Shown: positions 9,252 through 54,222, numbered from the stretch's first letter. The stretch is 61,771 bases of DNA from an uncultured Gammaproteobacteria bacterium (GCA_947258425.1 CAMYIG010000002.1:3154-64924); one strand, 5' to 3'. Numbers and translations: made by a program. The notes: generated from the sequence alone by a model not told the origin.

Positions 9252-9259
9252 GATATTGA

Positions 9260-10243: not shown

Positions 10244-10251
10244 AACACGCT

Positions 10252-11267: not shown

Positions 11268-11372
11268 ATTGATTCCACATCTCTGTTCCGATTCTATCTC
11301 GGCTTTCTATTCAGTCCTGTCTTTCATTTTGCTGCTAACAAGGCTGTCTGCTTGTCACGGTTTCGCTATCTA

Positions 11373-38856: not shown

Positions 38857-39876
38857 TTATGATAACGCGGCCAGCGTATCGATCGGCCAGCGTGCGCGCG
38901 CTTCGAATCTTGCTGGCTCCCGCTGCCCCGCCTGTAATCGCAGGCACCCCGCATAGGCGATCATCGCGCCATTATCAGTACAAAATTTCAGCCGTGGATA
39001 CGCGACCTGCGCCCGCTCCTTCAGCGCCATCTGATTGAGCCGCTCGCGCAGTGCACTGTTGGCACTCACACCTCCTGCAACGACTAACTGCCAAATGCCC
39101 GTCTCTCGGATGGCGCGCTGACATTTAATCGCCAATGTCTCAACCGCCGCGGTCTGAAAGGCGAGCGCGATATCGGCCCGGGTCTGTTCATCCATCTCAT
39201 TGGCATGTAGCGTATTCATCGCAAAGGTCTTCAGACCGCTAAAACTGAAATCAAGACCGGGGCGATCTGTCATTGGCCGTGGAAATTTAAACCGGGAAGG
39301 ATCGCCCTGTTTGGCAGTCTGTTCCAGTGCCGGTCCACCAGGGTAGCCCAAACCGAGCAGTTTAGCGGTCTTATCAAACGCCTCACCCACGGCGTCATCC
39401 AGTGACTCCCCGATGATCCTGTATTGCCCGACGCCCGTCACCGCGATCAACATCGTATGCCCTCCCGACACCAGCAGCGCGATAAAGGGAAACGACGGCG
39501 GATTCTCCTCCAGCATCGGTGCCAGCAGGTGCCCTTCAAGATGGTGCACGCCGACGGCAGGCACATCCCATCCCCACGCAAGGCTCCGCCCAACGGCAGC
39601 ACCGACCAGCAACGCGCCCACCAGCCCCGGCCCGGCGGTATAAGCGATGCCATCGATCTGCGCTGGCGTGGTCTCTGCCTGCTGCAGCGCCTCACGAATC
39701 AGCGGTAACAGCTTACGCACGTGATCACGTGATGCCAGCTCCGGTACCACACCGCCATATTCGGCGTGCATCGCCACCTGGCTATAGAGCATGTCTGAAA
39801 GCAGACCGTGCTCAGCATCATAGATCGCCACACCGGTCTCATCACAGGACGTTTCAATCCCAAGTACACGCATCAA
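38857..39876 (-). CDS. tsaD: tRNA N6-adenosine threonylcarbamoyltransferase
   Basis: 339 aa starting [19 protein letters not shown], and containing HHLEGH. Confidence 0.96.
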
Positions 39877-39998
39877 ATCACCCTGATTTTGTTAATCACC
39901 ATCATTCTGACATTATAACCAAGCTATGCTTCAGCCGCTTTGTGATTTGCCGAAAAAGAGAGATATACTACGCGTTCTGTATAATTTTCACTGACTTA

Positions 39999-41327
39999 AT
40001 GGCTGATGAGATAACCATGACAAACCTGGCGATCCAGATTAAAGGGCTAACCAAGATTTACCCCCCCGACAACCGGGCCATCGATGCGCTCGACCTTGAG
40101 GTCAAAGAGGGCGAGATCATGGCCCTGCTCGGCCCCAACGGCGCGGGCAAGAGCACCACGATCCGCGCCGCTTCGACCCTGTGCGGCTTTGATGAAGGGA
40201 ACGTGATGATCTCAGGCTTCGATGTCGACACGCACTCATTAGAAGTTAGGCAGTCAATCGGCGTCGTCGCGCAACAGACCGGCATTGATTACTTTCTAAC
40301 CGGTCGCGAGAATATGGTGCTGCAAGGCCATCTCTACCGCATGAAAAAGAGCGACATCGATGCACGTATCACCGAACTTGCGGGCTATTTTGAACTCGAT
40401 AACATGATCGACAATCTGGTGAGCACCTATTCTGGCGGTATGCGCAGAAAACTCGATATCGCGTGCGCCCTGATCCATCGCCCAAAAATCCTGTTTCTGG
40501 ATGAGCCGACACTGGGGCTCGATATCAAAAATCGCAAGATATTATGGAAACACATCGACAAACTCAACAAAGAGTTTGGCTTAACCATTCTGCTCACCAC
40601 GCACTATCTGGAAGAAGCGGACAACCTCTCCCATCAGGTGGCGATCATCAATGGCGGTAAGGTACAGGTGGTCGATACCCCGGACGCGCTGAAGAATAGC
40701 ATTCACGGTGACTCGATTACGGTCACCTTTGATGATGTGGGTAAAAATGAACAGGCGTTCTTTCACCACGCGCAACAACAATCGTATATCAAAGAGACCT
40801 CGTGGGAAGATAACAAGTTACATCTTTACGTCGAAGATGGTGGCGCAAATGTCGCTGCATTAATGGCGGTCGCCGCTGAGAGCGGTGCAAAGATTGTCAA
40901 TCTTTCACTGTCACGCCCCACACTAGATGATGTCTTCCTTAAATATACCGGCACCAGCATTAGCGAAGTCAAAGAAGATGAGGGTGACGAGTGGTGGAAA
41001 CAGTGGGCCGGTAAAGGTGGCAATAGCGGTAAATGGAAGAGCGAATGGGGTACTAACGACGGCGACACTGAAGCAGGTGGCGAAGATGAGTCATGGAAGA
41101 ATAGCGAATGGCTACAAGATGGTGAGCAAGGCAAAAACATGGGCGCCAAAAAAAGAGAAGAAGCCCAATGGCAGCAAACGGCATGGGCTGAAGGAAAACA
41201 GCAGCCTGCCCAGGACGAAAGTAGTAACACCGCTGACAAGCAGGAAGGTCAGCAGTGGGATCAGTCTCAACAGGATGACTGGCAAAATAATGAATGGAAC
41301 AAAAACAAAGATGGCGGAGAGAAATAA
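39999..41327 (+). CDS. ABC transporter ATP-binding protein (DrrA-like) with a 120-aa Trp-rich acidic C-terminal tail
   Basis: Walker A GPNGAGKST, signature YSGGMRRKL and Walker B ILFLDEPT are present. The start is the ATG at 39999 or at 40017. The longer track ORF is an artefact overlapping tsaD. Confidence 0.88.
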   Translation: MADEITMTNLAIQIKGLTKIYPPDNRAIDALDLEVKEGEIMALLGPNGAGKSTTIRAASTLCGFDEGNVMISGFDVDTHSLEVRQSIGVVAQQTGIDYFLTGRENMVLQGHLYRMKKSDIDARITELAGYFELDNMIDNLVSTYSGGMRRKLDIACALIHRPKILFLDEPTLGLDIKNRKILWKHIDKLNKEFGLTILLTTHYLEEADNLSHQVAIINGGKVQVVDTPDALKNSIHGDSITVTFDDVGKNEQAFFHHAQQQSYIKETSWEDNKLHLYVEDGGANVAALMAVAAESGAKIVNLSLSRPTLDDVFLKYTGTSISEVKEDEGDEWWKQWAGKGGNSGKWKSEWGTNDGDTEAGGEDESWKNSEWLQDGEQGKNMGAKKREEAQWQQTAWAEGKQQPAQDESSNTADKQEGQQWDQSQQDDWQNNEWNKNKDGGEK

Positions 41328-41330
41328 TCC

Positions 41331-42083
41331 ATGCTCGTAGATACATGGCATCTATTTAACAAATACATGCGCATCACTATGCGCATGCCGATGTGGACCC
41401 TGTTTACCCTGATCCAGCCACTTATCTGGCTACTGATCTTTGGGCAGTTATTTAAAGACTTTGTTCAGCTCGGCGATCAGGATTACATGGGGTTTATGGT
41501 GCCGGGCATACTGGTGATGACGGTACTATTTGGGTCGTCATGGTCAGGCGTTAGTCTGTTACGCGAAATCACCGCAGGCACGATCGACAAGATGCTGGTG
41601 TCACCCGTATCGCGCATCGCCATCGTGCTCAGCCGCGTACTGCACTCTTCAGCACAGGTGATCGCGCAGGCGTTTGTGATGTTGCTGGTCGCGTGGCTAC
41701 TGGGTGCAACACTCAACATGAACCCCATCTATTTAATGATGGCAATGCTCATTGTCTTTTTACTGGGCGTCGGCTTTGCGGCACTTTCAAATGGCTTCGC
41801 CATCGCATTACAACGAGAAGAACCTCTGGTCATGATCGGTAACCTGATGACACTACCGCTAATCTTCTTTTCATCAGCGCTCGTACCGGAACAGTTCATG
41901 CCGGACTGGATTCAACTTATCTCTGCAGTCAATCCGATCAGCTATGCCGTCGATGCAATTCGCGCGGTGTTAAGTCCCACGCCTGATATGACTGTTTTTG
42001 GACAGGGGCTATTAGTATTGACTATATTTGCAGGCGCTTCACTGACATGGGCAGTGACTGCTTTCAATGCACTCAGAGACTAA
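41331..42083 (+). CDS. ABC-2 type transporter permease
   Basis: 250 aa with about 6 TM segments. It starts 3 nt after the ATPase stop. Confidence 0.85.
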   Translation: MLVDTWHLFNKYMRITMRMPMWTLFTLIQPLIWLLIFGQLFKDFVQLGDQDYMGFMVPGILVMTVLFGSSWSGVSLLREITAGTIDKMLVSPVSRIAIVLSRVLHSSAQVIAQAFVMLLVAWLLGATLNMNPIYLMMAMLIVFLLGVGFAALSNGFAIALQREEPLVMIGNLMTLPLIFFSSALVPEQFMPDWIQLISAVNPISYAVDAIRAVLSPTPDMTVFGQGLLVLTIFAGASLTWAVTAFNALRD

Positions 42084-42095: not shown

Positions 42096-44834
42096 CTAAA
42101 ACAGCAGATTAAACCCTGTTGTTAACGCATTTCTCTCTGATCCAGCTAATGAGGTACTCTGGAATCGTAACCCAGCAAGAAACTCTTCATTTGTTAGCGT
42201 AGTTATAACGCCAAGATTAGAAATTGATTTAACATAGGCATAGTTAGCAAACACCCTCACCTTTCGGCTCATCCAGTAAGACACCCCGCCAGAAAGATTA
42301 TGTGTGCTGTTTTTCCGGTAACCGAGAAAATTAGTAAATGAGTCACGATTTTCATAACGGGTAATCGTGTACCCATAACTGACATTCCCCGTTATTCCAT
42401 TATTAAATCGATGATCAAATCTCATATTAAGCTGATGGCTACGATAAGCGTAATCGCTCGCTTCTATCTCAGTATTATCATTGCGAACATGATTGTAGCT
42501 CAACCGAACAGATGTTCGGTCACTAATACTCTGACTAATATCGCCGCCCAACCTCAGTGATTCTGAACTAAAAATTTTATTTGTCGCTGAATCAAAATTG
42601 GCCAGTGATGCTGACACAGTAAAGCCTGTCATTATTTTTTCATCTGAGAAAGGGTCAAATAGCTTCCAGAATTTAGCCCTTGTCATTATTTCAGAAAAGA
42701 AAATATCAGTAGAACTACTGCGTTGCTCGGTCAACAAACTTTGCGAAGCCCTTTTCGTATACCCGCCAACAACAGTATAACGTCCCGGTGTAATGGTTGC
42801 CGCCAGACTATTGCTTATGTTTAGAAAATCAAACTGACCCTTATGATAAGTTGAATATGTGGGCGAAGCCGTAAAACGCAGACCGAGGCTATTCTCCATT
42901 TTATATTGATAAGAAAGATTAAATGACATATCTGAGCGAAGCTCTGCTCCACTATTAGCAATCGTATCATCGGCCACAATATTATCGTCGAAGGATATTG
43001 AGTACCCCATGCCTGCAGTTAACCCTTTGATCTTTTTTTCTGTCGCAAACAACCTCGCTTTAATATCATCAGCAATTTTTTCATCAGGATTTTCCTGTAA
43101 AAGCTTACGGTATTCACTGATCGCCTTTTCTTCCTGGTTCAACCGCTCGAATGTACTGGCAATACTCAGGCGCGCACTAAAATTATCAGGTGACAATCTT
43201 ACAACATTTTCATAGGAATCCATCGCCTTTAAAAAGGACTCTTCACGAGTGTAAATAAGCCCCAGATAATAATAGGCAGTCACGTTATCAGGCCTATCAA
43301 CGATCATCTCTTTAAACTCTTTTTCCGCCAATCGAAGTCTGCCATCACTAAAATTTTTCTTTGCCATAACAAGCCGAAGCGACGCGACCAAAGCATCTGC
43401 TTGTTCAATATCAATAGTCAGCATCACGGCACGGGAATAAGCCTGGGCGGCCTCATCAAACTTAATCAGACCCTCTGCAATCGCACCTTTAATTCTAAAA
43501 ATTTGCGCGCTAAAAGGACTCAGCTCTGCCGCCGTAGATATCATTTCATAGGCTTCTTCTTTACGCTTAACCTGCGTATAAAATTGGGCTAATTTAAAAT
43601 AAGCTTCAATATCTTTAGCGTTCTTACTGATTCTGTCTAAGAGAAATGCCTCAACAACCTCCGCTTTTTCTTCTTTAGTCATTTCGCCAAAGAGGTCTTC
43701 ACCACTCATTTCTTCACCACTTATGTCCTTTAGTGTTTTTTCAGCTTCAGCAGCATACTTTGTTCCCTTTCCTTCGACGATCAGTTTTTCTAACAGGTCA
43801 ATCGCCAGGCCGGTCTGTTTCGACATCAAATACAAACCTGCAAGCTGAGATTTTGCCTCGAGATGCCCCGGCGCTAACGTTAATAATTTCTGATAACTCT
43901 CCTCAGCTGGCTTAATCTTACCAAGCTGGCTATAAGAGCGTCCCATCAACATAAGTGCAGGGATGCTATCAGGATTCACTTCGATAACCTCACTGAGGAT
44001 ATCCAGTGCATCCTGATGATTACCACTTGAAGCAATCAGGTTTGCCTCGATAAGCCCCAGTCGCTCTTTTGCCTGCTTTCCACTCGAACTCTCAGGATCG
44101 AACGAAACTACCTTTTCGAGACTTTCAATCGCCTTCGAAAGGTCTCCACGACGCTCATAGATACTTGCCAGGTTCAGATAACTTCCTGCGTGCCCTGGAT
44201 TTTGTTCAAGCACTTTGTTAAATTCGACTTCAGCCTGATCCATTTTTTTTAGAAAGAAATAGCTCAGCCCAAGGCTATATCTCATAGACGGATCATCTGG
44301 GTATTGCTGTACAAGCCGATCAAAAATAGGCACGGCCTTATCAAGGCTGCCACTTCTTGCTAGCTTCGTCGCTGAAAGATAATCTATCTTTTTATTTGCC
44401 AGCAAATAATCCTCCGAACCGGCCACAGCAAGCTCTCGTACTTTCCTGTAGGTTAATATCGCATCGTCATAAAGCGACCTGAACTCATAAGAGTATGCCA
44501 ATGATTTATGATAGCTAATACTTTCAGGCACTAACTCCACAGATCTTTTTAAATGCTCAATACCTTCATGGAAATGACCCATACGAACTAGAATCACACC
44601 TGTTTTTGCGTGCGCTTCAGCGTTGTCTTTATCGATCGCAAGTACTTTTTCAAGCAGTATCAATGCCGTAGAAAAGTCACCTCTTTCAAATTTACTCTGT
44701 ACCTCTCCAAGCAGTTTTGATGTTTGATCTATACCTTTTACAGTGCTCTGATCACCTTCTAATGCAACTGTAACAATAGGAGCCCCTGATAGCACAAAAT
44801 ACAAAAAGAAAATGATCAAGTACCGTATATTCAT
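42096..44834 (-). CDS. Secreted fusion of a long TPR array (about 570 aa) with a C-terminal OM beta-barrel (about 310 aa)
   Basis: Has a signal peptide and many TPR units. From about GLTAGMGYSISF the sequence shows the alternating hydrophobic pattern of amphipathic beta strands. It ends ...TTGFNLLF, with a terminal Phe. Confidence 0.75.
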   Translation of the reverse strand: MNIRYLIIFFLYFVLSGAPIVTVALEGDQSTVKGIDQTSKLLGEVQSKFERGDFSTALILLEKVLAIDKDNAEAHAKTGVILVRMGHFHEGIEHLKRSVELVPESISYHKSLAYSYEFRSLYDDAILTYRKVRELAVAGSEDYLLANKKIDYLSATKLARSGSLDKAVPIFDRLVQQYPDDPSMRYSLGLSYFFLKKMDQAEVEFNKVLEQNPGHAGSYLNLASIYERRGDLSKAIESLEKVVSFDPESSSGKQAKERLGLIEANLIASSGNHQDALDILSEVIEVNPDSIPALMLMGRSYSQLGKIKPAEESYQKLLTLAPGHLEAKSQLAGLYLMSKQTGLAIDLLEKLIVEGKGTKYAAEAEKTLKDISGEEMSGEDLFGEMTKEEKAEVVEAFLLDRISKNAKDIEAYFKLAQFYTQVKRKEEAYEMISTAAELSPFSAQIFRIKGAIAEGLIKFDEAAQAYSRAVMLTIDIEQADALVASLRLVMAKKNFSDGRLRLAEKEFKEMIVDRPDNVTAYYYLGLIYTREESFLKAMDSYENVVRLSPDNFSARLSIASTFERLNQEEKAISEYRKLLQENPDEKIADDIKARLFATEKKIKGLTAGMGYSISFDDNIVADDTIANSGAELRSDMSFNLSYQYKMENSLGLRFTASPTYSTYHKGQFDFLNISNSLAATITPGRYTVVGGYTKRASQSLLTEQRSSSTDIFFSEIMTRAKFWKLFDPFSDEKIMTGFTVSASLANFDSATNKIFSSESLRLGGDISQSISDRTSVRLSYNHVRNDNTEIEASDYAYRSHQLNMRFDHRFNNGITGNVSYGYTITRYENRDSFTNFLGYRKNSTHNLSGGVSYWMSRKVRVFANYAYVKSISNLGVITTLTNEEFLAGLRFQSTSLAGSERNALTTGFNLLF

Positions 44835-44838
44835 ATCA

Positions 44839-45750
44839 TCAATAATAAATATTTATTTTAAACAATGCGTGCCAGCCATTTAGATCAAGCTCCATTTTCC
44901 TGTATCCACCGCCATCTTCATCTGATAAATAACCTAGCTTGCCACTACCATCATTAACACCACCCGTCGGATAGGTAATGGATACGGTATCCTGTGGTTG
45001 AAAATCATTACTTGAATTTGCAGTACCCAGCTCGAATTTATTCAAACCAAAGGCATAACCCAGGTCCAGCCCTAGTGACAACCAGTCACGCATATAAAAC
45101 TCACCACCTATCGCTGGCTGAATCATCAAATGGCCAGTGGCCTGGGTCTCTAGGCGTGTAATTCGCTTAAACGTTTCACCTGGGTTTAGTGAGTCATCAA
45201 ACTCAAACACAAAGCTTTCACGAAAGTCGATATCAAACACTTCATTTAATAAAATACGACTATAAAAAGTGAATCGCTTGTGTCTTTTGACTAAATCTCG
45301 ACGCCACCCGAGGTAGTATTGAAGGTATCCAATACTTGCACGGCGTGTATATACCGTATCGGTGAGTCGCCCCTGAAATGGTAATGTTGTCTTTACACGA
45401 GCAGTGCTCACTCCTTCCCAGGCACTTAAACCGATTACAAAGTGATTTCTTTGGTCAACTTCCATACGAAATTCAATGCCCGCTTCCGTCCCATACGTAA
45501 TCTTTGGAAGTGGATTATCTATATCATATCTAACTTGACGTGGCCCAGCACCGTCCTGAAATAAAAGTTCACCCGATAAAGGTAAGCTTGCGCCGAGCAC
45601 TTTATCATTGATGAGCCCAAGATCTGGACTATGGATACCGAGCATCGGTGATACGCTCCACCTAACTTCGGCCATGGCTGTGCCCATCATCAAAGTAGAA
45701 ATTACAAAGACGAGTAATAAAGGCCCCTTATGAATGAAGAAATTAAGCAA
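44839..45750 (-). CDS. Putative OM beta-barrel protein (303 aa, TTG start 1 nt after the MMPL stop)
   Basis: Signal peptide MMGTAMAEV, alternating beta-strand pattern and an aromatic C-terminus FKINIYY. Confidence 0.65.
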   Translation of the reverse strand: MLNFFIHKGPLLLVFVISTLMMGTAMAEVRWSVSPMLGIHSPDLGLINDKVLGASLPLSGELLFQDGAGPRQVRYDIDNPLPKITYGTEAGIEFRMEVDQRNHFVIGLSAWEGVSTARVKTTLPFQGRLTDTVYTRRASIGYLQYYLGWRRDLVKRHKRFTFYSRILLNEVFDIDFRESFVFEFDDSLNPGETFKRITRLETQATGHLMIQPAIGGEFYMRDWLSLGLDLGYAFGLNKFELGTANSSNDFQPQDTVSITYPTGGVNDGSGKLGYLSDEDGGGYRKMELDLNGWHALFKINIYY

Positions 45751-45751
45751 A

Positions 45752-48250
45752 TCAAACGGCCTTACTTTTAAATCCCGTTTTGATCAGTGTCAGTAAAAGT
45801 GGAAGCAGCACCAGCGCTGCAATACAACTTATTACCATATACACACTCACAAATGCACCGAGTTTAATATGCGGTGGAAATTGCGAAGCAAGTAATATCA
45901 TAAACCCGACCGTGACTACGGCCGCATTATATACAACTGTTTTTCCTACACTTCGCATAGACTCAACTACTGCGTCCTCATGCCCCAACGCCCTCTTCCT
46001 CTCATATCTATATTTATACAAATAATGTACTGCGTAATCGACACCTACGCCAATGGCAACACCAGCAGCGAGTGCGGTCGAAACATCGAGTGGAACACCA
46101 AGAAAGCCGATACCCCCAGCGACCACAAGCGTTGTAGCGGTTACAGGTACGACGGTAAGTAAACCGAGTATGAATGAACGAAACAGTAATATGGCAATTA
46201 TCAGGATTCCAATCTTTGATATAAGTACTGCCATTATCTGGCTATCTATTAACAAATCCGCCCAGATATAAGAGTTGTTTGCGGAGCCGGCCATATTAAC
46301 TTTAACATCAAAACCGGCCATCTCTTGTAACACATATTCATTGACCTTCGCTACGATCTCTTTCAGGTACTGTGTCTCATCCGTCTTAATTAAAAATGAA
46401 ATGTTCGCCTGCCGATAATCATAATCGATCACTTCATTTAGCTCATCAGGCCTACCTGATATCGATAACAAATAAAGAAACTCATTAACTTCGGCTTCAG
46501 TATCTGGCATTCGATCGTACTTTGCATCGCCATTATTAAGATTTTTATTGACGCTTTTAAGGTAATCAACAATTGAAATTGAATCGCCAACCAGCGAATG
46601 TCCTTCTACATGTCGCTGCATGCTCTCTATCTTTTTTAGTAACCCCGGTGATTTAAGCGCCCCAGGTTTACTGCCTTCCACTACAACATTCAGAAATATC
46701 GAGCCATCCATTCTTTCATTAATTAAATCATTTGCGATGGAAACGTCGCTTTCTTTATTAAAGTCGCTCATCCAGCTTGAATTAACGTAGATTTTACTAG
46801 CACCAAATGCGGATACAATAAACACAAGCATCGCTACTATAACAATCATTTTATTATTGCGAATTGAAAAATGACCCCAGCTTACAAGTAAGCGTCCAAC
46901 TGTACCATCTTCCTCGTGTACTCTTAATGACCGCTTCTTCTTGAGGTAGTCTCCAACCTTAGGTTTTAGCACTGTCAATATCGATGGCGCTAATAGTACT
47001 GAAAGTAGCCAGCAATAGATTATTCCTATCACAGTAAATAACCCGAACACTTTAAATGGGGGCATTTCTGAAAACATCAGCGCAAGAAAGCCAATCACGG
47101 TTGTTATCGTTGTTGTTATTAATGGTGGCGCTAGCTGAACCATAACACCTGTCACAATTTCACTTGATTTCCCATGCGGATTTTTCAGCACATGATCATA
47201 ATATCGACTCATCACATGCATCGAATCACCTATACCAACGGCAACTAGTATCACGGGTAGCATCGTGGATATCGTGTACATTGGAACATTAAAAAAGGCC
47301 ATGGTTCCCATTGTCCAAATAACAGCACTGGTAATGACAATCATTGGAATAAATACGCCACGCCATGTTCTATAAAATAAATATAACATCGCGCCAAGCG
47401 TCACTAACAGTAAAGGAATCATCACCTGAATATCTTTTAAGGCACTTAAACCTGAAGTAACTTCTATGACTGGACGGCCCGCCATGTATAGCACATCTCC
47501 ATTTTCATCTGCACTGATGACTTTTTCGAGGTTGCCCGGATCCATTCCGACAGGCCATGATTCTTTTTTAGCTTCAACCCCAGTATTGTTTTTATCACTA
47601 ATGTCGCTTTCAGTACCATTCCATTCAGATGAATCGCTCCATCCTCCACTCCACTTACTATCCAGCCCACGCTCACTGTCCAGCATCGATTTAATTGCCC
47701 AGTACGTGCTGTACCTATTTGCAATCCCCTCTTTAAGCTTCGCTCGAATTATGGCGACTTTGCCATCTTCTGAAATAATATTACCCACAAAAAGATCTGC
47801 ATTTCGCTCAATTGAATCGCGTACTTGTTCAAATTCTTCTGGTGTTTCTGGAATCATTTCCATGACCCGCACTGAACCAAGCGTCTCTTCATCACCACTA
47901 AATGCACTCGCCGTAGAAATAGACATAACATCTATCACACGATTAGCCGCAACACCGGGTAGTTTCGCGACCTTTTCAGTAATTCGTTTAACACGCCTAA
48001 GAGTTTCAGCGTTGTACACACCCTTTTCTTCATTGACAATCGCAATCATAATGGCGTTTTTTACACCAAATGTATCCGCCACTATCTCATCATAGATGAT
48101 GGCATGATGCCCTTTTGGTAGATAAACACGTGCATCAGTTTCCCACTGCAATTTATCTATCTGCATTGCGCAGAACAGTGTAAATACCATCAATGCAATT
48201 ATTATTATCTTAGGGTAGCCAATGACGTACCCATATAATTTATGCCACAT
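45752..48250 (-). CDS. MMPL / HAE3-type RND superfamily inner-membrane transporter
   Basis: 832 aa with two blocks of about 6 TM helices, each preceded by a large soluble loop. The N-terminus is typical of MMPL/RND exporters. Confidence 0.82.
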   Translation of the reverse strand: MWHKLYGYVIGYPKIIIIALMVFTLFCAMQIDKLQWETDARVYLPKGHHAIIYDEIVADTFGVKNAIMIAIVNEEKGVYNAETLRRVKRITEKVAKLPGVAANRVIDVMSISTASAFSGDEETLGSVRVMEMIPETPEEFEQVRDSIERNADLFVGNIISEDGKVAIIRAKLKEGIANRYSTYWAIKSMLDSERGLDSKWSGGWSDSSEWNGTESDISDKNNTGVEAKKESWPVGMDPGNLEKVISADENGDVLYMAGRPVIEVTSGLSALKDIQVMIPLLLVTLGAMLYLFYRTWRGVFIPMIVITSAVIWTMGTMAFFNVPMYTISTMLPVILVAVGIGDSMHVMSRYYDHVLKNPHGKSSEIVTGVMVQLAPPLITTTITTVIGFLALMFSEMPPFKVFGLFTVIGIIYCWLLSVLLAPSILTVLKPKVGDYLKKKRSLRVHEEDGTVGRLLVSWGHFSIRNNKMIVIVAMLVFIVSAFGASKIYVNSSWMSDFNKESDVSIANDLINERMDGSIFLNVVVEGSKPGALKSPGLLKKIESMQRHVEGHSLVGDSISIVDYLKSVNKNLNNGDAKYDRMPDTEAEVNEFLYLLSISGRPDELNEVIDYDYRQANISFLIKTDETQYLKEIVAKVNEYVLQEMAGFDVKVNMAGSANNSYIWADLLIDSQIMAVLISKIGILIIAILLFRSFILGLLTVVPVTATTLVVAGGIGFLGVPLDVSTALAAGVAIGVGVDYAVHYLYKYRYERKRALGHEDAVVESMRSVGKTVVYNAAVVTVGFMILLASQFPPHIKLGAFVSVYMVISCIAALVLLPLLLTLIKTGFKSKAV

Positions 48251-48285
48251 ACCTTTCCCTTATCCGCTATTCATTCCAACAGCGA

Positions 48286-49776
48286 TTAAAATGTATATTT
48301 AAACTCCATAAACACTCTGGAGTTATTGTGAAAATTACCAAAAAACTGTGCGTTCTGTACCGTTGTATCAGCAGTTGTACCAAATACCCGTCCTCGCTCA
48401 GCCTCAATACCTATCTTTGATGAGCTGCCATAAAATATATCCATGCCCGTTGCAATCTGAAAATGATCAGTGACATCAAATGTAATTTTAGGTTTTACGT
48501 AACTTTCGCGGGCATTTAGAATATTAATGTAGAGCAGTTGAAAAACCGCTGATTTTTCTGGCATCGGTTTGCGAATAAACAGGGCAAGAGAGGTGTCAAA
48601 CTCATCCTGAAAAAGCACCGGGTCATAATCGATTATGTACCATTGTGCTATTGCCGGGGAGATATCCATTCCCCAAATATTCATATCTATTCCCAATCCC
48701 CAGCGTATGTGTTTTCTTTGCAGTACGCCGTCAGAGTCCAGAAAACCATCACCATCAATATCTGTATCATTCTCCAAACCAAAGAACTTGTCGGGTACGT
48801 ATACGAATTCACCTTTAACAATATTCTCACCAACCGGCGTCACAAACGTCGCCCCGTACATATTTAACCGGGTTACGGTTGGAAAGAAAGTAGGTTCTGA
48901 GGTACTCGCTATTCTTGATGTTCTGAAAACTACAGGAAAATCATCCCACGTGTAGAAATAACTAAGCCCAACTTCGGTGCCTAGAATCTCTTTGGTATAT
49001 CTGATTCCAATTTCAGAGTTTCTTAATTTTTTTGGATCGGGTTTTGTTCTATTTGGCACATCCTGCAGTAGTTCCCATTCTGATCCAAGCGGCGCTGCTT
49101 TATGTAACTTTAAATCTGGTATCCATAAAAATTGCCAGGTCGAAGCCTCTGCATAATAATCTATCTTAGCGCTCCAAAGTGGTATGCGGTAATCAAGTAG
49201 ATCCAGCAGTATCAGCTCCCTAAAATCCATTGGATTTATTTCGTCTGTCAGACGCATGCCTTCCAGCACTCCCCAGACTACAAACTGCTTGCCCAGGCGA
49301 ATATCCATATTATCGGTAAAGATATCCAGATAGAGTTCTCTGATTTCTCCAGCAGGTGAATCTTTTTCTTGTTCAAGGTTATCAACAAAAACAAGCGGCT
49401 GTGACTCATCGCGAACTATGCGTGCTGCGATTGTTTCATAATCAAACAGGTCATACGCATGATCATAATAAGCCCAACCCGAGAAGGTTATCGATGAATT
49501 AGCCGTTGGTGAGTATTGACCACCCAGCGAAAATATATTTCTAATTTTGGTGATTGATCTTGGCTCACGAAATCGATAGGCGGTCTCATTCTTTATATAG
49601 CCATTAAATGTCCAATCATCGATAAAGCTCTTAAAATAGCCATCTTCACTATCCACTTCTTCGGCAGACGCGCACCCTATTGTAAAAGCACTTACTACAT
49701 AGAACAGAATTACAAGCGCCCTAGCTGGTAGGGCGCGACTTAACCTATGCCTTCTTGTGATTTGCATTGTTCGCAT
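48286..49776 (-). CDS. Putative OM beta-barrel protein (496 aa; tentatively DUF1302-like)
   Basis: Signal peptide, extended alternating-strand pattern and the terminal motif EFKYTF. Confidence 0.7.
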   Translation of the reverse strand: MRTMQITRRHRLSRALPARALVILFYVVSAFTIGCASAEEVDSEDGYFKSFIDDWTFNGYIKNETAYRFREPRSITKIRNIFSLGGQYSPTANSSITFSGWAYYDHAYDLFDYETIAARIVRDESQPLVFVDNLEQEKDSPAGEIRELYLDIFTDNMDIRLGKQFVVWGVLEGMRLTDEINPMDFRELILLDLLDYRIPLWSAKIDYYAEASTWQFLWIPDLKLHKAAPLGSEWELLQDVPNRTKPDPKKLRNSEIGIRYTKEILGTEVGLSYFYTWDDFPVVFRTSRIASTSEPTFFPTVTRLNMYGATFVTPVGENIVKGEFVYVPDKFFGLENDTDIDGDGFLDSDGVLQRKHIRWGLGIDMNIWGMDISPAIAQWYIIDYDPVLFQDEFDTSLALFIRKPMPEKSAVFQLLYINILNARESYVKPKITFDVTDHFQIATGMDIFYGSSSKIGIEAERGRVFGTTADTTVQNAQFFGNFHNNSRVFMEFKYTF

Positions 49777-50198
49777 ATAATTACATGGCTCTTACCAGGT
49801 ACCATTCCAAATATAACTTCATCGCCTTTATTCATCTGCTTAGTACAGCAATTGCAGACCACTTCCTTATTTAGCGTCAATTTCTCCCAACCAATGACCT
49901 CCTCGAATACATTCTTTTTCGCTTCTTCGGCCAAACCAGTTCGGTTTACCGCTTTCTCTTGCGTCAAAACCTCGGCATCGATATTTTCAATATAATCGGT
50001 CAATATATTCCTGATTAGAATTGAGACTGGGATTCCAAGTGCCTCTGCCTTCAACAAGATTCTTTCACGCAACACTTTTGGCACGCGCGCACCAAGATAC
50101 TCCTGCTTCCGCTTTTCTGCGGCCGACATCGCTTGCTGACGCATCGCATCCGCTCGTTCTGTCATCATTTCTCTCATACTGTCTCGTTTATTTTCCAT
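49740..50198 (-). CDS. Ribbon-helix-helix (CopG/Arc-like) DNA-binding domain fused to a C-terminal Cys4 zinc-ribbon-like domain
   Basis: 152 aa. RVPKVLRERILLKAEALGIPVSILIRNILTDYI fits a beta-alpha-alpha RHH fold. The C-terminus carries CNCC...CEQC. Its 3' end overlaps the 496-aa gene start by 28-37 nt. Confidence 0.65.
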   Translation of the reverse strand: MENKRDSMREMMTERADAMRQQAMSAAEKRKQEYLGARVPKVLRERILLKAEALGIPVSILIRNILTDYIENIDAEVLTQEKAVNRTGLAEEAKKNVFEEVIGWEKLTLNKEVVCNCCTKQMNKGDEVIFGMVPGKSHVIICEQCKSQEGIG

Positions 50199-50240
50199 TG
50201 CGCCTCCAAACTATTTGTCTTAAAATACCGTGAAGTATCA

Positions 50241-50266
50241 CATTGTATAACAAATGTTATACAATG
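50241..50266. promoter_or_regulatory. Perfect 12-2-12 inverted repeat; candidate operator
   Basis: The sequence is cattgtataaca aa tgttatacaatg. It lies 43-68 nt upstream of the RHH regulator start codon and just downstream of a terminator. Confidence 0.6.
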
Positions 50267-50276
50267 TCAATCGCAA

Positions 50277-50305
50277 ATAAAAAAAGGCCATGTCATAACA
50301 TGGCC
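50277..50305 (-). terminator. Rho-independent terminator after the LolA-like gene pair
   Basis: On the minus strand, GGCCATG-ttatga-CATGGCC is followed by TTTTTTTATTT. Confidence 0.75.
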
Positions 50306-50338
50306 TCTCCATCATAAAAACTCCAACAATATCAGCTG

Positions 50339-51229
50339 CTAATTTCTGCTCTCAATACCTGACTTCAATGTCCTTTTCGAGAACTGACGATCACTTAAGC
50401 CAGAATCTACTTCAACATCGCTCATTTCGAAAGTCGACTTGTGTCGCTCCTGCAGGTCTGTCACCACAACTCGTCGCCACATCCATGCATCCCCCACCTT
50501 CTGCCAATCGAGTAGCTGTTCTTTAAGCAGAACACCCTTACTATCGTAATATGCTATTTTTTTAACCACACACTGCTCCCAGCCAGCGGCATCATCACCC
50601 TTATCGATCCAGAAAAACCTTTTTGAGTACAAGCCACCTTTAGTCCGTGGCGTACTTTCAACCTTATAGAATGACTCCCCACCCAAATCGTCCATACCTT
50701 TATAGAAATGCTGGTCGTCATCTAAGGGACGAAAGCTCACATCCTGATACGTTAAATCGGAATTCAGAAACCGATCGCCAGGATCCCGTATTGTGACTCG
50801 GCGAGTCTTCCTTAACACTGGTAAATAAATCCACTGTTCGGCACTTTTTCCTGATTCCGGCGTAAATGCTGTCCGCATAAATGCCCCACCCTTAGAATCG
50901 GGTGGAAACTCGGTAAATAACATCATTTTTTCAATGACGTTTCCCTTACCCCCATAATCTTTCCAGTAGCGTCGATAAATACTTTTCTTTTTGTTACCAC
51001 TAGCATCTTCAAGGGTAACCGTAAATGTTGATGTCTGATCTTTACCTGCAAACTTATAGGCACACTGACTGATCAGCTCTTTACCCGTTAAAACACCCGA
51101 TAAATTCGTCTCTTCAGCCTTAATTTCAGATACAAAAAGAGAGGTGACTAATGCCATTATCACGATGGAATAATTTATATTATTCCATCTGTCATTATTA
51201 CTTACCAATAAAGAATTAAGATTTATCAT
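50339..51229 (-). CDS. LolA-like outer-membrane lipoprotein-sorting family protein (paralogue 2)
   Basis: Contains EQWIYLPVLRKTRRVTIRDPGDRFLNSDLTYQDV and has a signal-like N-terminus. The start is taken at the ATG at 51229 (MINLNS...), which avoids overlap with the upstream gene. Confidence 0.78.
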   Translation of the reverse strand: MINLNSLLVSNNDRWNNINYSIVIMALVTSLFVSEIKAEETNLSGVLTGKELISQCAYKFAGKDQTSTFTVTLEDASGNKKKSIYRRYWKDYGGKGNVIEKMMLFTEFPPDSKGGAFMRTAFTPESGKSAEQWIYLPVLRKTRRVTIRDPGDRFLNSDLTYQDVSFRPLDDDQHFYKGMDDLGGESFYKVESTPRTKGGLYSKRFFWIDKGDDAAGWEQCVVKKIAYYDSKGVLLKEQLLDWQKVGDAWMWRRVVVTDLQERHKSTFEMSDVEVDSGLSDRQFSKRTLKSGIESRN

Positions 51230-51254
51230 AAACCACTTACCTTGATCATTCTTT

Positions 51255-52109
51255 TTACTTACCCAGAGCTCTCGGCCCAACCCGCAGTGTTCTTGCCGAA
51301 AATAAACTATCGTCTAATCCAACATTAACCTCAACATCACTCACTACAAATATAGATACATGACCTGTTAATACATTTCTAACCAATACACGATCCCAAA
51401 TCCAGGCGCCTTTAACCTGCTGCCATTTATTAAACTGTACTTTTGCGAGATTCCCTTCTTTCGTATAATAGTCGATACGCGCACTTACACAAGCTTCAGG
51501 GGCTTCTCCCTTCAAAAACCATTGAACACGCTTGCCGTAAATGCTTTTTCCAACTGGAATGCTTTCTACCTGATAGAACTCTAATCCCTGCACTTTCTTA
51601 ACCCCAAGAAAACGGTGATTATCAGCAGTCACCAAGCGCTGCCCAACATCGGCATATGAAAGATCAGAATTTAAAAAACTATCAGCAGGGTCGCGAATAG
51701 AAACTCTTCGTATTTTTTTTAGTAATGGAAGATAGATCCACTGATCGGCTTCTTTCTCAGATACTCCAGTATAGGACACTCGCATAAATGAAGAACCAAC
51801 GGCATCTGGTGGATACTCAGTAAAGAGCAACATTTTATCAAATACACCATCAACGCCACCGTAACTCTTCCAGTAGCGATGATAGACACTACGTTTTTCT
51901 GTCCCCTGCTGTGGATTCTGAAGAATTACTGTTAATTTAGAGCGCTGATCACTGCCTGCATTTTTAATCGCGCAATTAGCAACAATACTCTCTGCAGATA
52001 TATCAGGCCTTTCTTCAGCTACTACCATACAAGTAGGCAATAAAAACATATAACTCAAAACATAAGTTATCGCTCTAATGCGTACTTTCTTAATTTTGCC
52101 TGCCATCAT
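51255..52109 (-). CDS. LolA-like outer-membrane lipoprotein-sorting family protein (paralogue 1)
   Basis: Has a signal peptide and contains DQWIYLPLLKKIRRVSIRDPADSFLNSDLSYADV. It is clearly paralogous to the next gene. Confidence 0.8.
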   Translation of the reverse strand: MMAGKIKKVRIRAITYVLSYMFLLPTCMVVAEERPDISAESIVANCAIKNAGSDQRSKLTVILQNPQQGTEKRSVYHRYWKSYGGVDGVFDKMLLFTEYPPDAVGSSFMRVSYTGVSEKEADQWIYLPLLKKIRRVSIRDPADSFLNSDLSYADVGQRLVTADNHRFLGVKKVQGLEFYQVESIPVGKSIYGKRVQWFLKGEAPEACVSARIDYYTKEGNLAKVQFNKWQQVKGAWIWDRVLVRNVLTGHVSIFVVSDVEVNVGLDDSLFSARTLRVGPRALGK

Positions 52110-52180
52110 GATTTCATCATCCTATCTACTCATCAGATAATTTATATCACTAACACGGAACTGATAACACAAATAATTAA

Positions 52181-52212
52181 ACCAAAATAAAAAGGGGCCC
52201 GGAGGCCCCTTT
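52181..52212 (-). terminator. Rho-independent terminator after the secreted-protein gene
   Basis: A 9-bp stem, aaaggggcc / ggccccttt, closes a 4-nt loop. On the minus strand it is followed by UUAUUUUGGU. Confidence 0.8.
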
Positions 52213-52240
52213 AACAATCACTAAATTTAAGTGATTTAGA

Positions 52241-53233
52241 TTACGGTAAGACTGGTGCAGTACCAAAATTACCCGCATCCCAAGCAAACGGCGATGCAGT
52301 GACATCAGTTGAGCTGGTTGAAAAAGTACTAATAACAGCTCCATCAGTAACGTCATTAACGCTTTCAAAACCAAATGTTGATGTTCCAAGTCCGCCTAAA
52401 CCAACTCGTTGACCTAACCATGCGACCATTACATCGTCAGTGGCTGCCCATGTCGCAGTACCACCGGTACCAGGAGATGTAGCATTAGGCTGAAGTGTGA
52501 GCGTACCTGCACTTGTCATTAGATCGCCACTGCGCTGTCTAATAACAAAACGCTGAAAGTCATTACCTGGCGCACTTACTGTTGGATCACTCATTCCTAC
52601 ATCCTGAGTCATATCCATTGTTTTACCGGTAGCAAGTCCAGCACCGTCAAGATTAACCCCTAAGCTGAATGTGTTTTCAAAATCATCCTCTGTCTGTGTC
52701 GCGCCAGGTGCGCCAATGGCCACACCTGTGCCGCCATTATTACGAAAGGTCTGGTCAATTTGCAGATCTGCGAAACCAACACCTTTATCAGCCCAAGTAC
52801 CAATCGCTAATTCAGATGTTGCGTTAAAAAGATCTCCGGTTCCATCATTAGGATCATCCCTCATCGTCTGTAAACCAGCGATACCATTGCTGCTACCGGA
52901 CATCTGGATAAAAGTGATATCAGAAAAAGCTAGCGTTGTGACATTGGTGTTAGAAGCACTAACGTCAGCTGGTGCTAGCGGATCGATAATCACGGTCTGA
53001 ATAAAGGTATCAGCGCCCACAGTAACTTCCTGCTGCAAAAAACCTTCACCGTCAATCAAAATCTTACAGGTAGCCCCGCCCCCAGTAGGACAGCCAACAA
53101 GCGTTCCCGTTGTATTTGCTAACACCTCAATGCCGGTAAACCCCGGTCCTGCTGCCATTGCACTACTGATCGGAAGCAGTGCTGCTGCCGCCCCAACCAT
53201 TGCTAAACTCTTAACTACATTACGAATTTTCAT
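52241..53233 (-). CDS. Secreted Gly/Thr/Asp-rich protein of unknown function (330 aa)
   Basis: The ATG at 53233 is preceded by AGGGGG. Signal peptide is MKIRNVVKSLAMVGAAAALLPISSAMAA. There are only two Cys (CPTGGGATC) and no family I can recognise. Confidence 0.7.
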   Translation of the reverse strand: MKIRNVVKSLAMVGAAAALLPISSAMAAGPGFTGIEVLANTTGTLVGCPTGGGATCKILIDGEGFLQQEVTVGADTFIQTVIIDPLAPADVSASNTNVTTLAFSDITFIQMSGSSNGIAGLQTMRDDPNDGTGDLFNATSELAIGTWADKGVGFADLQIDQTFRNNGGTGVAIGAPGATQTEDDFENTFSLGVNLDGAGLATGKTMDMTQDVGMSDPTVSAPGNDFQRFVIRQRSGDLMTSAGTLTLQPNATSPGTGGTATWAATDDVMVAWLGQRVGLGGLGTSTFGFESVNDVTDGAVISTFSTSSTDVTASPFAWDAGNFGTAPVLP

Positions 53234-53589
53234 ATCAAACCCCCTGTTATTTGGAAGCAATTGTCTTACACAAGCCCTTGCCTGTCTTCCTATGGCACGG
53301 TTGCTTGCAAGTTTACGGACAAAAGCTTCCATCTATATCCGCACATTTAAAATCTTTTTTATGCTGCGCTATTTATAGCAACAGACACATTCCGTGTCAA
53401 CACCTGACCTATCTACTACTTTGCAGTGAAGCCGCTAATTCCGTTGATTTGCAACAGAAATTTATTTTACGAGGCCAATCACTCCATTCAATACACTGAC
53501 GTTCCATACATTTATATCGGCCACATCAAATAGAACCTTTAGGATAAACGTGGCTTACCGTAAAACGCTATCCAATAAAACAGTATAAA

Positions 53590-54222
53590 TCAAATCCTAT
53601 TAAGATATACAATATTATTTTGTCTCTCACCAAAATCAACGGCAGATGACGAGGCATAGTCGATCCTTAGCTGGCGATAGCCAATAAGCGGCATTTTCAA
53701 CGCCTCTGCCATCATCACTCGGATCGGGCCAACATGGGCGACTATCACGACTGTTTTGCCTGCGTGAGACGCTAAAGCCGTATTTACACCAATTCTAACT
53801 CTGGCCAGTAAACCCCCTATTGTTTCCCCGCCTTTTGGGGCGAAATTAAGCGGATCCTCTTTCCAGGCGCGATACCCCTCCGGGTAATTTTTTTCAACCT
53901 CATCAAAATAGAGCCCATCCCATTCACCAAATCGTCGCTCCAAAAAGGCGTCATTAGTAATGATTTCACCACCATTTTTTTCCACGACTGCCTTAGCGGT
54001 CATCTGTGTGCGCTGCGTAGGACTAGCGTAGATTGCATCAATTGAGACATTCGATAACCGCATAGCAGCTGCCTCAGCCTGCGCTATCCCGGCCGTATTC
54101 AGCGGAGGGGACTCTCTGTCATCGCAATAAAGACGATCCAGTGGAAAATCGGTCTCCCCATGGCGGACAAATATAATTCGCGTACTTTGCTCTTTTTCTC
54201 TCATCAGGCCCGGCCCTTTCAT
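53590..54222 (-). CDS. Histidine phosphatase family protein (phosphoglycerate mutase-like)
   Basis: Contains the RHGETD motif and a second catalytic His in VAHVGPIR. The start may be the internal Met at 54204. Confidence 0.8.
   Translation of the reverse strand: MKGPGLMREKEQSTRIIFVRHGETDFPLDRLYCDDRESPPLNTAGIAQAEAAAMRLSNVSIDAIYASPTQRTQMTAKAVVEKNGGEIITNDAFLERRFGEWDGLYFDEVEKNYPEGYRAWKEDPLNFAPKGGETIGGLLARVRIGVNTALASHAGKTVVIVAHVGPIRVMMAEALKMPLIGYRQLRIDYASSSAVDFGERQNNIVYLNRI

Follow-up and report, generated by a model that had tools for sequence, protein, structure and literature searches.

An eight-gene envelope cluster of uncultured marine Gammaproteobacteria is related to DUF1302/LolA-superfamily/HAE3 RND cassettes

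What is the role of a compact block of cell-envelope genes set among housekeeping genes, and does it encode an undescribed system, as the initial annotation proposed? The block occupies positions 42096-53233 of the window (the whole 61,771-nt stretch of DNA that was analysed), and all of its ORFs lie on the minus strand, in the order g8, g7, g6, g5, g4, g3, g2, g1 (Table 1). The annotated ORFs were all confirmed at their coordinates, but the genes number eight rather than nine. The eight-gene cluster is real and is conserved in uncultured marine Gammaproteobacteria.

Table 1. Genes and transcription signals of the block, in window coordinates
Feature	Position	Strand	Basis or description
Promoter-like site upstream of g8	53372..53400	-	TTGACA, 17 nt, TATAAA; identified by direct reading
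g8, secreted 330-aa acidic Gly/Thr-rich beta protein, own transcription unit	52241..53233	-	Signal peptide, AF2
Intrinsic terminator after g8 (g8/g7 gap)	52191..52212	-	9-bp stem, 6 GC pairs, then TTATTTTGG
g7, periplasmic LolA_like protein, 284 aa	51255..52109	-	PF17131, PDB matches, signal peptide
g6, second LolA_like paralogue, 313 aa (TTG 51280) or 296 aa (ATG 51229)	50339..51280	-	PF17131
Intrinsic terminator after g6 (g6/g5 gap)	50281..50310	-	13-bp stem, then T-run
Promoter of the g5-g4-g3-g2-g1 operon (g6/g5 gap)	50242..50270	-	TTGACA, 17 nt, TACAAT; 11/12 positions match, near-consensus
Putative g5 operator, 28-nt perfect palindrome	50240..50267	-	ACATTGTATAACATTTGTTATACAATGT; 13-bp arms
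g5, 152-aa cytoplasmic protein, predicted ribbon-helix-helix (RHH) + C4 zinc ribbon	49740..50198	-	Motif, four Cys, weak family matches
g4, DUF1302-like outer-membrane barrel, 496 aa	48286..49776	-	PF06980, signal peptide, terminal F
g3, RND-superfamily transporter, HAE3/MMPL type, 832 aa	45752..48250	-	MMPL, TIGR00921, TM layout
g2, 303-aa outer-membrane beta-barrel, rare unnamed family	44839..45750	-	AF2 model, Foldseek
g1, 912-aa protein: signal peptide, ~570 aa TPR, C-terminal barrel of ~320 aa (roughly 42096-43070)	42096..44834	-	TPR families, BBP2_2, terminal F

The genes g4, g3, g2 and g1 are tightly packed, with successive spacers of 35 nt (48251-48285), 1 nt (45751) and 4 nt (44835-44838), and the g5 and g4 genes overlap by 37 nt (49740-49776); these short spacers and the overlap indicate co-transcription. 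The nearly spacer-free run that had been described holds for these genes, but not for the 131-nt gap between g8 and g7 or the 140-nt gap between g6 and g5, both of which contain a strong intrinsic terminator, and the second a promoter as well. The eight genes are thus organized in three transcription units, not in one spacer-free operon. The promoter scan passed over the promoter-like site in front of g8 because the second hexamer of this site ends in A.

The block is AT-rich, as had been noted (41-47% GC compared to 50-59% in the flanks; by position along the window, 41-44% over 42-54 kb compared to 51-57% on either side), and the drop falls mainly at third codon positions and synonymous sites, with a GC3 of 32-45% in the cluster compared to 58-68% in the flanking TsaD, PlsY, ABC and gatAB genes. 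We considered recent transfer as the cause of the low GC and rejected it, because relatives with 35-55% protein identity show the dip at the same chromosomal site.

The family assignments of the initial annotation mostly stood. The transporter g3 matched MMPL (2.4e-29) and the sterol-sensing domain (2e-11), and its best NCBIfam model is the HAE3 model TIGR00921 (4.4e-73; 246 bits, where the subfamily cut-off is 352). Its hydropathy profile has ~12 TM segments and two large loops, and it retains the Asp residues in GIGD (339-342) and GVDY (736-739), the TM4-like and TM10-like motifs. The two LolA-like proteins are indeed paralogues, since g6 is ~46-51% identical to g7 orthologues, and both matched PF17131 (9.5e-40 for g6; 3.6e-36 for g7). 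Both are short PF17131 proteins whose matches to DUF1329 (PF07044) span only ~100 residues each, at 38 bits for g6 (above the gathering score of 23.1) and 22.5 bits for g7 (just under it). The g7 protein has a signal peptide and a pI of 9.5, and its PDB matches are 9tp6_A (2e-28), 4z48 and 3bk5. We rejected the canonical Lol pathway (LolA/LolB, PF03548/PF03550, with LolCDE and lipoprotein cargo), since g6 and g7 match PF17131 rather than LolA, LolCDE genes are not present, and neither g8 nor g4 has a conserved lipobox.

The folds of all three predicted outer-membrane barrels, one of them fused to a TPR region, were likewise supported, and each protein ends in an aromatic residue (...NLLF, ...NIYY, ...KYTF). 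We found that g4 matched DUF1302 (PF06980) at 2e-15 (57.2 bits; gathering score 23.2), and that it is not a lipoprotein, because its N-terminal Cys is not conserved. The g2 protein matched no Pfam or NCBIfam model, but its AF2 model is confidently all-beta (pLDDT 89, pTM 0.79), and its Foldseek matches in the PDB were exclusively outer-membrane barrels (OmpT/Pla, OmpA, OprG, OpcA and FadL), with probabilities up to 1.0, yet TM scores of only 0.2-0.4. Its family comprises only 99 representative clusters among 1.84e9, and its gene always lies directly after a DUF1302-like or RND gene in related loci. The g1 protein matched many TPR families, and its C-terminal 324 aa matched BBP2_2 (6.8e-8, above the gathering score) as well as Porin_4; hhalign found no relationship between g1 and g2 (probability 2%).

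The secreted g8 protein, described as belonging to no known family, has a signal peptide (...SSAMA/AGPGF), a pI of 4.05 and no Pfam or NCBIfam match. Its homologues, only 34 among 5.8e9 proteins, share an invariant mature N-terminus, (A/G)GPGF, and an invariant Cys pair (C48/C56), and remote g8-like proteins are encoded in two further related loci, L056 and L053 (hhalign probability 98%). The AF2 model of g8 is weak (pLDDT 66) and all-beta, and had no PDB fold match.

The assignment of g5 as an RHH/zinc-ribbon regulator held in part. In its family, the motif KRKEEYLGARVPK.LRE...IPVSILIRN is conserved and four Cys are invariant; 17 of 18 members matched CopG_antitoxin, but all of these matches are below the gathering score (best E 3e-4), and the RHH_5, Arc and RHH_1 models gave similarly weak, sub-threshold matches to a few homologues. 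No signal peptide was found. The palindrome upstream of g5 extends from the last two bases of the -35 hexamer through the -10 hexamer of the g5-g1 operon promoter, and its core can be written GTATAAC-N4-GTTATAC. The core pattern with a spacing of N(0-8) occurs once in the window, compared to 0 expected. Moreover, each of 20 related loci has it exactly once, just ahead of g5 in every case, and g5 itself is only 39-72% identical across these loci. Given this conservation, the palindrome is probably the operator of g5. A palindromic operator that overlaps its own promoter is a feature of RHH repressors (CopG/Arc/MetJ), and g5 with its putative operator has this arrangement; g5 is probably an autoregulator.

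The block recurs with the same gene order in 84 related loci, all from uncultured organisms and most of them at the same chromosomal site, down to ~30% protein identity (g2). The DUF1302-like and g2 barrels occur together in 59 of the 59 assessable loci that carry g2, and are the only invariant pair. The RND gene was found in 58 of 73 related loci (absent in 15), a LolA-like gene in 37 of 46 (absent in 9) and the TPR-barrel gene in 45 of 53 (absent in 8), which does not fit the idea of nine fixed parts centred on the RND pump. Variants that lack the RND gene retain the barrels, the LolA-like gene and g8. Since the RND and LolA-like genes are each missing from some loci, a relay from the inner to the outer membrane cannot be the invariant function of the block. 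Gene content, folds and families, co-conservation, transcription signals and the conserved putative operator are established.

We compared the block with known systems, and the likeness to DUF1302/DUF1329/RND clusters was borne out. The core of the block has its relatives in the DUF1302/DUF1329/BNR/RND cassettes (AmeABCD), whose mutants show phenotypes although no mechanism is known; compared to these cassettes, the block has four extra parts. The block does not belong to an undescribed kind of system, since phenotypes of such DUF1302/LolA-superfamily/HAE3 RND cassettes have been published: loss of ameABCD results in lower monoterpene tolerance and higher Nile Red accumulation (PMC6394551); cofitness links the DUF1302, DUF1329, BNR and RND genes of Shewanella, Kangiella and Pseudomonas (bioRxiv 10.1101/072470); and in P. 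putida, growth on Tween 20 and butyl stearate depends on the DUF1302 and DUF1329 genes together with the BNR and RND genes (bioRxiv 10.1101/2020.07.04.188060; PMC10866462). AlphaFold co-folding predicted DUF1302-DUF1329 and DUF1329-BNR-RND complexes (PMC10866462; ipTM 0.84 in PMC13499233). Another published relative is a fused MMPL/LolA-like protein of Thalassolituus that is up 42-fold on C28 alkane (PMC6304351). Both the AmeABCD type (Castellaniella defragrans) and the block encode a DUF1302 barrel, a LolA-superfamily protein and an HAE3-type (COG1033) RND pump together, neither includes a membrane-fusion protein or a TolC-type channel, and both have a dedicated regulator nearby, which is LuxR-type in Pseudomonas and here a predicted RHH/zinc-ribbon protein with a conserved palindromic putative operator. 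In contrast, the BNR/Ycf48-like propeller (COG4447) of the AmeABCD type had no match in any of the eight block proteins; the only propeller nearby, a Kelch protein (57232-58164), is encoded on the opposite strand and is unrelated to the block. The carrier also differs, being a duplicated short PF17131 protein of ~250 aa instead of a ~450-aa DUF1329 protein. Furthermore, the block adds an always-present 303-aa barrel of a new family, a TPR-barrel fusion and secreted g8, and its RND pump is dispensable in some lineages.

Two other known systems resemble the block in part. HpnN, an HAE3 RND protein from the same branch, is the best solved-structure match of g3 (1e-12) and transports a lipid in the inner-to-outer-membrane direction, but it acts without dedicated periplasmic or outer-membrane partners. 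A hopanoid HpnN locus is excluded, as g3 scored far under the model cut-offs (TIGR03480, 83.8 bits compared to 751.85; NF052374, 38.6 bits compared to 1100) and no hpn or shc genes occur in the flanks. In the aryl-polyene and Thalassolituus TOL_3187 pairs, a LolA-like module is likewise coupled to an MMPL-type RND protein, and the hydrophobic molecule that they handle is destined for the outer membrane. Unlike the block, these pairs lie in biosynthetic clusters or are fused in one protein, and partners of the DUF1302-like, g2 or TPR-barrel kind are absent.

We consider it about an even call that the block represents an AmeABCD-type cassette in a form specific to its lineage and works as the following relay, in which we infer the direction of transport, the class of substrate, the physical contacts and what g8 does. 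Driven by protons, the RND protein g3 would pick up a molecule, hydrophobic or amphiphilic, in the inner membrane or the periplasm, and soluble g7 and g6 would shield it as it crosses the periplasm. An outer-membrane assembly based on g4 and g2 would receive the molecule and pass it into or across the outer membrane; the TPR domain of g1 would offer a docking scaffold on the periplasmic side, and the barrel of g1 a third pore. With a strong promoter-like site and a terminator of its own, g8 may be a further partner or a cargo of the outer-membrane part, and g5, by binding the palindrome in its own promoter, would repress g5-g4-g3-g2-g1 until some signal arrives. As had been stated, a profile-based family search found no biosynthetic enzyme among the eight genes, and neither a biosynthetic nor a catabolic gene lies in the block or adjoining it; hence there is no clue to the substrate.

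Transport in the opposite direction is unlikely but deserves weight. If the block were an uptake system, the g4, g2 and g1 barrels would let in a nutrient of low solubility (for example, long-chain esters, alkanes or lipids), and the LolA_like proteins would carry it inward, with the RND protein as an optional helper. The growth phenotype of P. putida described above is consistent with this idea, as are the retention of barrels, LolA-like gene and g8 in RND-less variants and the induction of the Thalassolituus fusion protein on C28 alkane (PMC6304351). FadL and TodX are also among the fold matches of g2, but with TM scores of only 0.14-0.19. Moreover, RND transporters are known for export, and here the g3 gene lies within the operon of the barrels, separated by 1 and 35 nt from the genes next to it; the lack of catabolic genes nearby and the housekeeping character of the flanks also argue against uptake.

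Slightly less probable still is the idea that g1, g4 and g2 bring g8 to the cell surface as a cargo, in the manner of Slam (type XI) secretion, with the LolA_like proteins as chaperones. Slam and g1 both join an N-terminal TPR region to a C-terminal outer-membrane barrel in one polypeptide, and in both cases a secreted-protein gene lies within the locus. Of 40 assessable loci, 32 have g8-like genes together with the barrels, and among them are variants that lack RND and LolA-like genes, such as L053. Furthermore, a strong promoter-like site and a terminator belong to g8 alone; like surface proteins, it is acidic and rich in Gly and Thr, and it is the fastest-diverging member (58-70% identity compared to 78-84% for the RND protein in close relatives). 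However, the TPR_Slam match of g1 (9e-14) is a generic TPR signal, and its barrel falls short of SlipAM (DUF560, PF04575; 18.3-18.9 bits, gathering score 22), with weak matches in 4 of 24 g1 homologues. As a cargo, g8 has no lipobox, and its weak model contains no recognisable TbpB-type C-terminal domain and matches no TbpB- or hemophilin-like cargo domain; in L056-type loci g8 is present and g1 absent. The block also has barrels, LolA-like proteins and an RND pump beyond the Slam set, and a pump with LolA-fold carriers suggests lipid-like ligands, not proteins.

An exopolysaccharide exporter of the PgaA/BcsC/PelB kind, with g1 as the polymer porin, is very improbable. These proteins share with g1 a periplasmic TPR scaffold fused to a C-terminal outer-membrane barrel; the g1 barrel matches BBP2_2, PrsT (PEP-CTERM system) is the second-best NCBIfam match of its TPR part, and AlgE is closest to the DUF1302 barrel in published models (PMC13499233). 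Nevertheless, neither the block nor the DNA next to it, in the window or in the related loci, includes a gene for a glycosyltransferase, a polysaccharide synthase or a polymer-modifying enzyme, and the family models score far under their cut-offs (PGA_TPR_OMP, TIGR03939, 49.4 bits compared to 366.65; PrsT, 153 compared to 312). It is just as doubtful that the genes are neighbours by conserved synteny only, without joint action and with low GC marking a tolerated foreign island: the block does lie at one fixed site amid housekeeping genes and several members were gained or lost between lineages, but the 1-35-nt spacers and the overlap point to co-transcription, and in distant loci with other flanks (L015, L053, L056, L073) the DUF1302-like and g2 genes are still clustered, usually with g8, LolA-like or TPR-barrel genes.

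What is new in the block, relative to the known DUF1302/LolA-superfamily/HAE3 RND cassettes, is its accessory set and a probable regulator with its putative operator.

The envelope gene cluster at positions 42096-53233 of the window, here called the block, contains eight open reading frames, all on the minus strand and numbered g1 to g8 from the downstream end, rather than the nine genes of the initial annotation. The ORF coordinates bore out the claimed spacers of 4, 1 and 35 nt, as well as the claimed overlap, which is between g5 and g4. The block is also AT-rich, as had been claimed, with a GC content of 41-44% compared to 51-57% around it, and this deficit lies mostly in third codon positions (GC3 of 32-45%, compared to 58-68% in the TsaD, PlsY, ABC and gatAB genes). 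The block is not a single operon, contrary to what a near-spacerless run had implied: intrinsic terminators follow g8 and g6, and a promoter precedes g5. Thus, the terminators and promoters delimit three units: g8 alone; g7-g6; and g5-g4-g3-g2-g1.

Features of the block and its surroundings, in window coordinates
Feature	Description	Length	Position	Strand
g1	TPR repeats and C-terminal barrel	912 aa	42096-44834	minus
g2	barrel without known family	303 aa	44839-45750	minus
g3	RND transporter	832 aa	45752-48250	minus
g4	DUF1302-like barrel	496 aa	48286-49776	minus
g5	RHH/zinc-ribbon protein	152 aa	49740-50198	minus
g6	LolA_like protein		50339-51280 (alternatively to 51229)	minus
g7	LolA_like protein		51255-52109	minus
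g8	secreted, family-less protein	330 aa	52241-53233	minus
Terminator after g8	intrinsic, strong		52212-52191	minus
Terminator after g6	intrinsic, strong		50310-50281	minus
Promoter before g5	near-consensus sigma-70: TTGACA, 17 nt, TACAAT		50270-50242	minus
Site upstream of g8	TTGACA-17-TATAAA, read from sequence		53400-53372	minus
Putative operator	perfect palindrome	28 nt	50240-50267
ABC transporter genes	DrrA-like ATPase and ABC-2 permease		39519-42083	plus
Phosphatase gene	His_Phos_1		53590-54222	minus
Kelch gene	Kelch-repeat beta-propeller	310 aa	57232-58164	plus
Second low-GC island	GC3 40-50%		8133-17441	minus

The initial parts list proved right, based on profile matches for g1, g3, g4, g6 and g7 and on a structural model for g2. 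With 57 bits, g4 scored above the DUF1302 threshold; the idea that it is a lipoprotein was ruled out, since its N-terminal Cys is not conserved. In g1, ~570 aa of TPR repeats precede a barrel of ~320 aa that matches BBP2_2 above threshold as well as other barrel families, with a SlipAM match below threshold; a homologue search with this barrel found just 4 proteins and added nothing. The g1 orthologues of two close relatives, L001 (13363-16830) and L006 (13390-16830), are ~1150 aa long and have extra internal TPR repeats. The g2 model is all-beta and confident (pLDDT 89, pTM 0.79), and its fold matches in the PDB are exclusively outer-membrane barrels, with high probability and low TM score; the g2 family is a rare one, making up only 99 of 1.84 billion representative clusters. 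We rejected g2 as a paralogue of the g1 barrel (hhalign probability 2%), and its status as a DUF1302 fragment is unsupported, with zero Pfam matches even at an E-value of 10. The C-terminal residue is F in g1 and g4 and Y in g2, and g8 ends in VLP. NCBIfam has no name for the g1 barrel, g2, g4, g5, g6 or g8, and sequence-profile searches of the PDB with alignments of g8, g2, the g1 barrel and g5 yielded nothing significant.

Profile searches placed g3 in the RND superfamily, HAE3/MMPL type, with matches to MMPL (2.4e-29) and to the sterol-sensing domain, and with a TIGR00921 match (4.4e-73) that is under that model's cut-off. The closest solved structure is HpnN (1e-12), and the hydropathy profile has the usual 12 helices and two loops, with the Asp retained in the GIGD and GVDY motifs. 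Both g6 and g7 are PF17131 LolA_like proteins (1e-39 and 4e-36, respectively) with partial matches to DUF1329, and with 9tp6, 4z48 and 3bk5 as relatives of solved structure. In the more distant genomes of loci L008-L011, the region ~9 kb downstream of the block (~20.8-22.1 kb) contains an extra LolA_like gene with ~32% identity to g7.

The acidic g8 protein (pI 4.05) has a signal peptide and a high content of Gly and Thr. It belongs to no family, and a set of 5.8 billion proteins contains just 34 homologues; a Cys pair and the mature N-terminus (A/G)GPGF are invariant, and distant g8-like proteins were confirmed with hhalign (probability 98%). The g8 model is all-beta but weak (pLDDT 66), and a fold search with it found no match, with every hit at chance level (E values of 0.3 and higher). 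In public annotations, g8 and two close homologues are called as proteins of 358-363 aa that begin at an upstream ATG (52241-53332 in the window); this N-terminal extension is not conserved, and the start backed by the alignment is that at 53233 (MKIRN...). The phosphatase gene is the immediate upstream neighbor of g8, in the same orientation, and it keeps this position in the distant loci L012, L034, L035, L059 and L061, even where the moa genes have been replaced.

The g5 protein lacks a signal peptide and has a conserved segment, KRKEEYLGARVPK.LRE...IPVSILIRN, and four invariant Cys; 17 of 18 homologues gave weak CopG, RHH or Arc matches. Within the g5-operon promoter lies the palindrome ACATTGTATAACATTTGTTATACAATGT, which begins with the final two bases of the -35 hexamer and takes in the -10 hexamer. 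In the window, the palindrome core GTATAAC-N(0-8)-GTTATAC is present once, against a chance expectation of none; each of 20 related loci also has exactly one copy, which always lies 55-75 nt before g5, although the g5 proteins of these loci are only 39-72% identical. No second copy was found before g8 or g7 with up to 3 mismatches allowed. We infer from this layout, which matches that expected of an autoregulating RHH repressor, that g5 probably binds the palindrome.

A genome scan with g3 yielded 11 loci, all from uncultured Gammaproteobacteria. Six of these (RND 78-84% identical) have all eight genes in the same order with the same flanks, and the other five (RND ~54% identical) have a distant g8 and just one LolA-like gene. 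Another 67 loci came from a metagenome scan with the g2 alignment, and 6 more from look-ups of two g2 homologues; all loci were mapped by tblastn and our own HMMs, with counts for each position taken from assessable loci only. These counts describe the sample and are not a test because the loci are phylogenetically non-independent: g2 is found with a DUF1302-like gene in 59/59 loci, RND in 58/73, a downstream TPR-barrel in 45/53, LolA-like in 37/46, g5 in 35/47 and g8-like in 32/40. The block does recur elsewhere and is a real observation, beyond chance, but the unity of the machine had been overstated, given the counts for RND, LolA-like and TPR-barrel genes. Five variant layouts were seen: g8, LolA, g5, DUF1302, g2, g1, without RND (L012, L034-L042); g8, LolA, DUF1302, RND, g2, without g5 or g1 and followed by large SBBP/DUF11/CARDB proteins (L056-L074); g5, DUF1302, RND, g2, g1, without adjacent LolA or g8 (L071-L079); TPR-barrel, LolA, DUF1302, g2 (L015); and g8, DUF1302, g2 with giant TPR-barrels (L053, L073). 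In one group of loci, seen in L060 (11063-18795) and L067 (7363-14913), three secreted proteins replace the TPR-barrel downstream of g2: a 909-aa DUF7948+SBBP+DUF11 protein, a family-less 381-aa protein and a 1213-aa CARDB+SBBP protein.

The block has His-phosphatase and moa genes at one end and ABC-2, TsaD and PlsY at the other, and both these flanks and the GC dip are retained down to ~35% g2 identity. Thus, the block is old and vertically inherited; we rejected recent horizontal transfer as the source of its low GC, since the dip and flank synteny persist at 35-55% protein identity. The carriers are uncultured Gammaproteobacteria of sediments and hydrothermal vents. L012 (GCA_050182315.1, JBFXCI010000008.1) is labelled Nitrospiraceae, a bin label that may be wrong: its flanks follow the gammaproteobacterial window order (His-phosphatase, block, ABC-2, TsaD, PlsY), and its proteins are 50-76% identical to those of the window.

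The ABC ATPase and ABC-2 permease genes, which converge on g1, adjoin the block in 38/48 assessable loci, with identities of 93-99% in close relatives and 60-76% in distant ones; the 602-aa ATPase ORF call overlaps tsaD on the opposite strand, and thus its true start is probably later. We considered this transporter as a possible inner-membrane partner in RND-less loci; it is far better conserved than the block (93-99% in close relatives), has housekeeping neighbors and is absent from distant loci such as L015, and we provisionally treat it as synteny. The second low-GC island encodes a trypsin-like protease with DUF4124, two ExbD, one ExbB, TPR proteins of 206 and 934 aa, and unnamed proteins of 327 and 474 aa. 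Since this is another envelope module, both low-GC islands in the window are envelope gene sets. The Kelch gene is flanked by moaA and a ThiF/MoeB-like gene; its propeller does not belong to the BNR/Ycf48 type, and nothing evident connects it with the block.

The likeness to DUF1302/DUF1329/RND clusters that had been noted holds, and with it the claim of novelty proves overstated, since cassettes of this kind are already published as the AmeABCD type. These consist of DUF1302, DUF1329 (LolA superfamily), a BNR/Ycf48-like propeller and an HAE3 RND, of which the block shares three of four; it lacks the propeller, its carrier is a short PF17131 protein, and it adds g2, g1, g8, and g5 with its putative operator. 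AmeABCD of Castellaniella is required for monoterpene tolerance and decreases Nile Red accumulation (PMC6394551); in Shewanella, Kangiella and Pseudomonas, the DUF1302, DUF1329, BNR and RND genes show cofitness (bioRxiv 10.1101/072470); and P. putida requires its cassette genes on Tween 20 and butyl stearate (bioRxiv 10.1101/2020.07.04.188060; PMC10866462). Co-folding predicts DUF1302-DUF1329 and DUF1329-BNR-RND complexes (PMC10866462), and according to a 2026 paper DUF1302 has neither a solved structure nor a direct function, and these cassettes have no known mechanism (PMC13499233). In searches of the literature on TP0789, on LolA-like proteins with MMPL and on HAE3 lipid transport, no characterised system of the make-up of the block turned up.

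We favor, with about an even chance of being right, a route that takes a hydrophobic or amphiphilic molecule across the envelope, in which g3 would extract the molecule, g7 and g6 would carry it onward, and an outer-membrane assembly of g4, g2 and g1 would take delivery, with g5 repressing its own operon. Against this route, pump and carrier are optional across lineages, and there is no clue to the substrate. Uptake of hydrophobic nutrients is an unlikely alternative. We consider it rather unlikely that the barrels display or secrete g8, although g8 co-occurs with them, carries its own strong expression signals and diverges fast. It is quite improbable that the DUF1302-like barrel, the 303-aa barrel and g8 form an outer-membrane machine, so far unrecognised, for putting g8 on the cell surface or anchoring it in the outer membrane; g8, which is fast-evolving and acidic and has an invariant mature N-terminus, may be abundant, and here the LolA_like carriers, RND pump and TPR-barrel would be exchangeable add-ons. 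Polysaccharide export and mere synteny of neighbors are both very improbable, and in membership tests the block did not qualify as an HpnN, Slam, PgaA/BcsC or canonical Lol system.

Because the carriers are uncultured, direct benefits will stay limited as long as there is no cultured carrier or heterologous system; g5 and its putative operator are a clean pair that could be studied in vitro or serve to identify the inducing signal and, through it, the substrate. With the block come three protein families without a name: g8, the 303-aa barrel and the RHH/zinc-ribbon regulator. DUF1302/LolA-superfamily/RND cassettes are common across Gram-negative bacteria, with mutant phenotypes in solvent tolerance and fatty ester use, and the block reveals that their parts are separable, such that the barrel pair persists without pump or carrier. 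If the two barrels and g8 do form a machine of their own, this would be a new protein-display route rather than a lipid pump.
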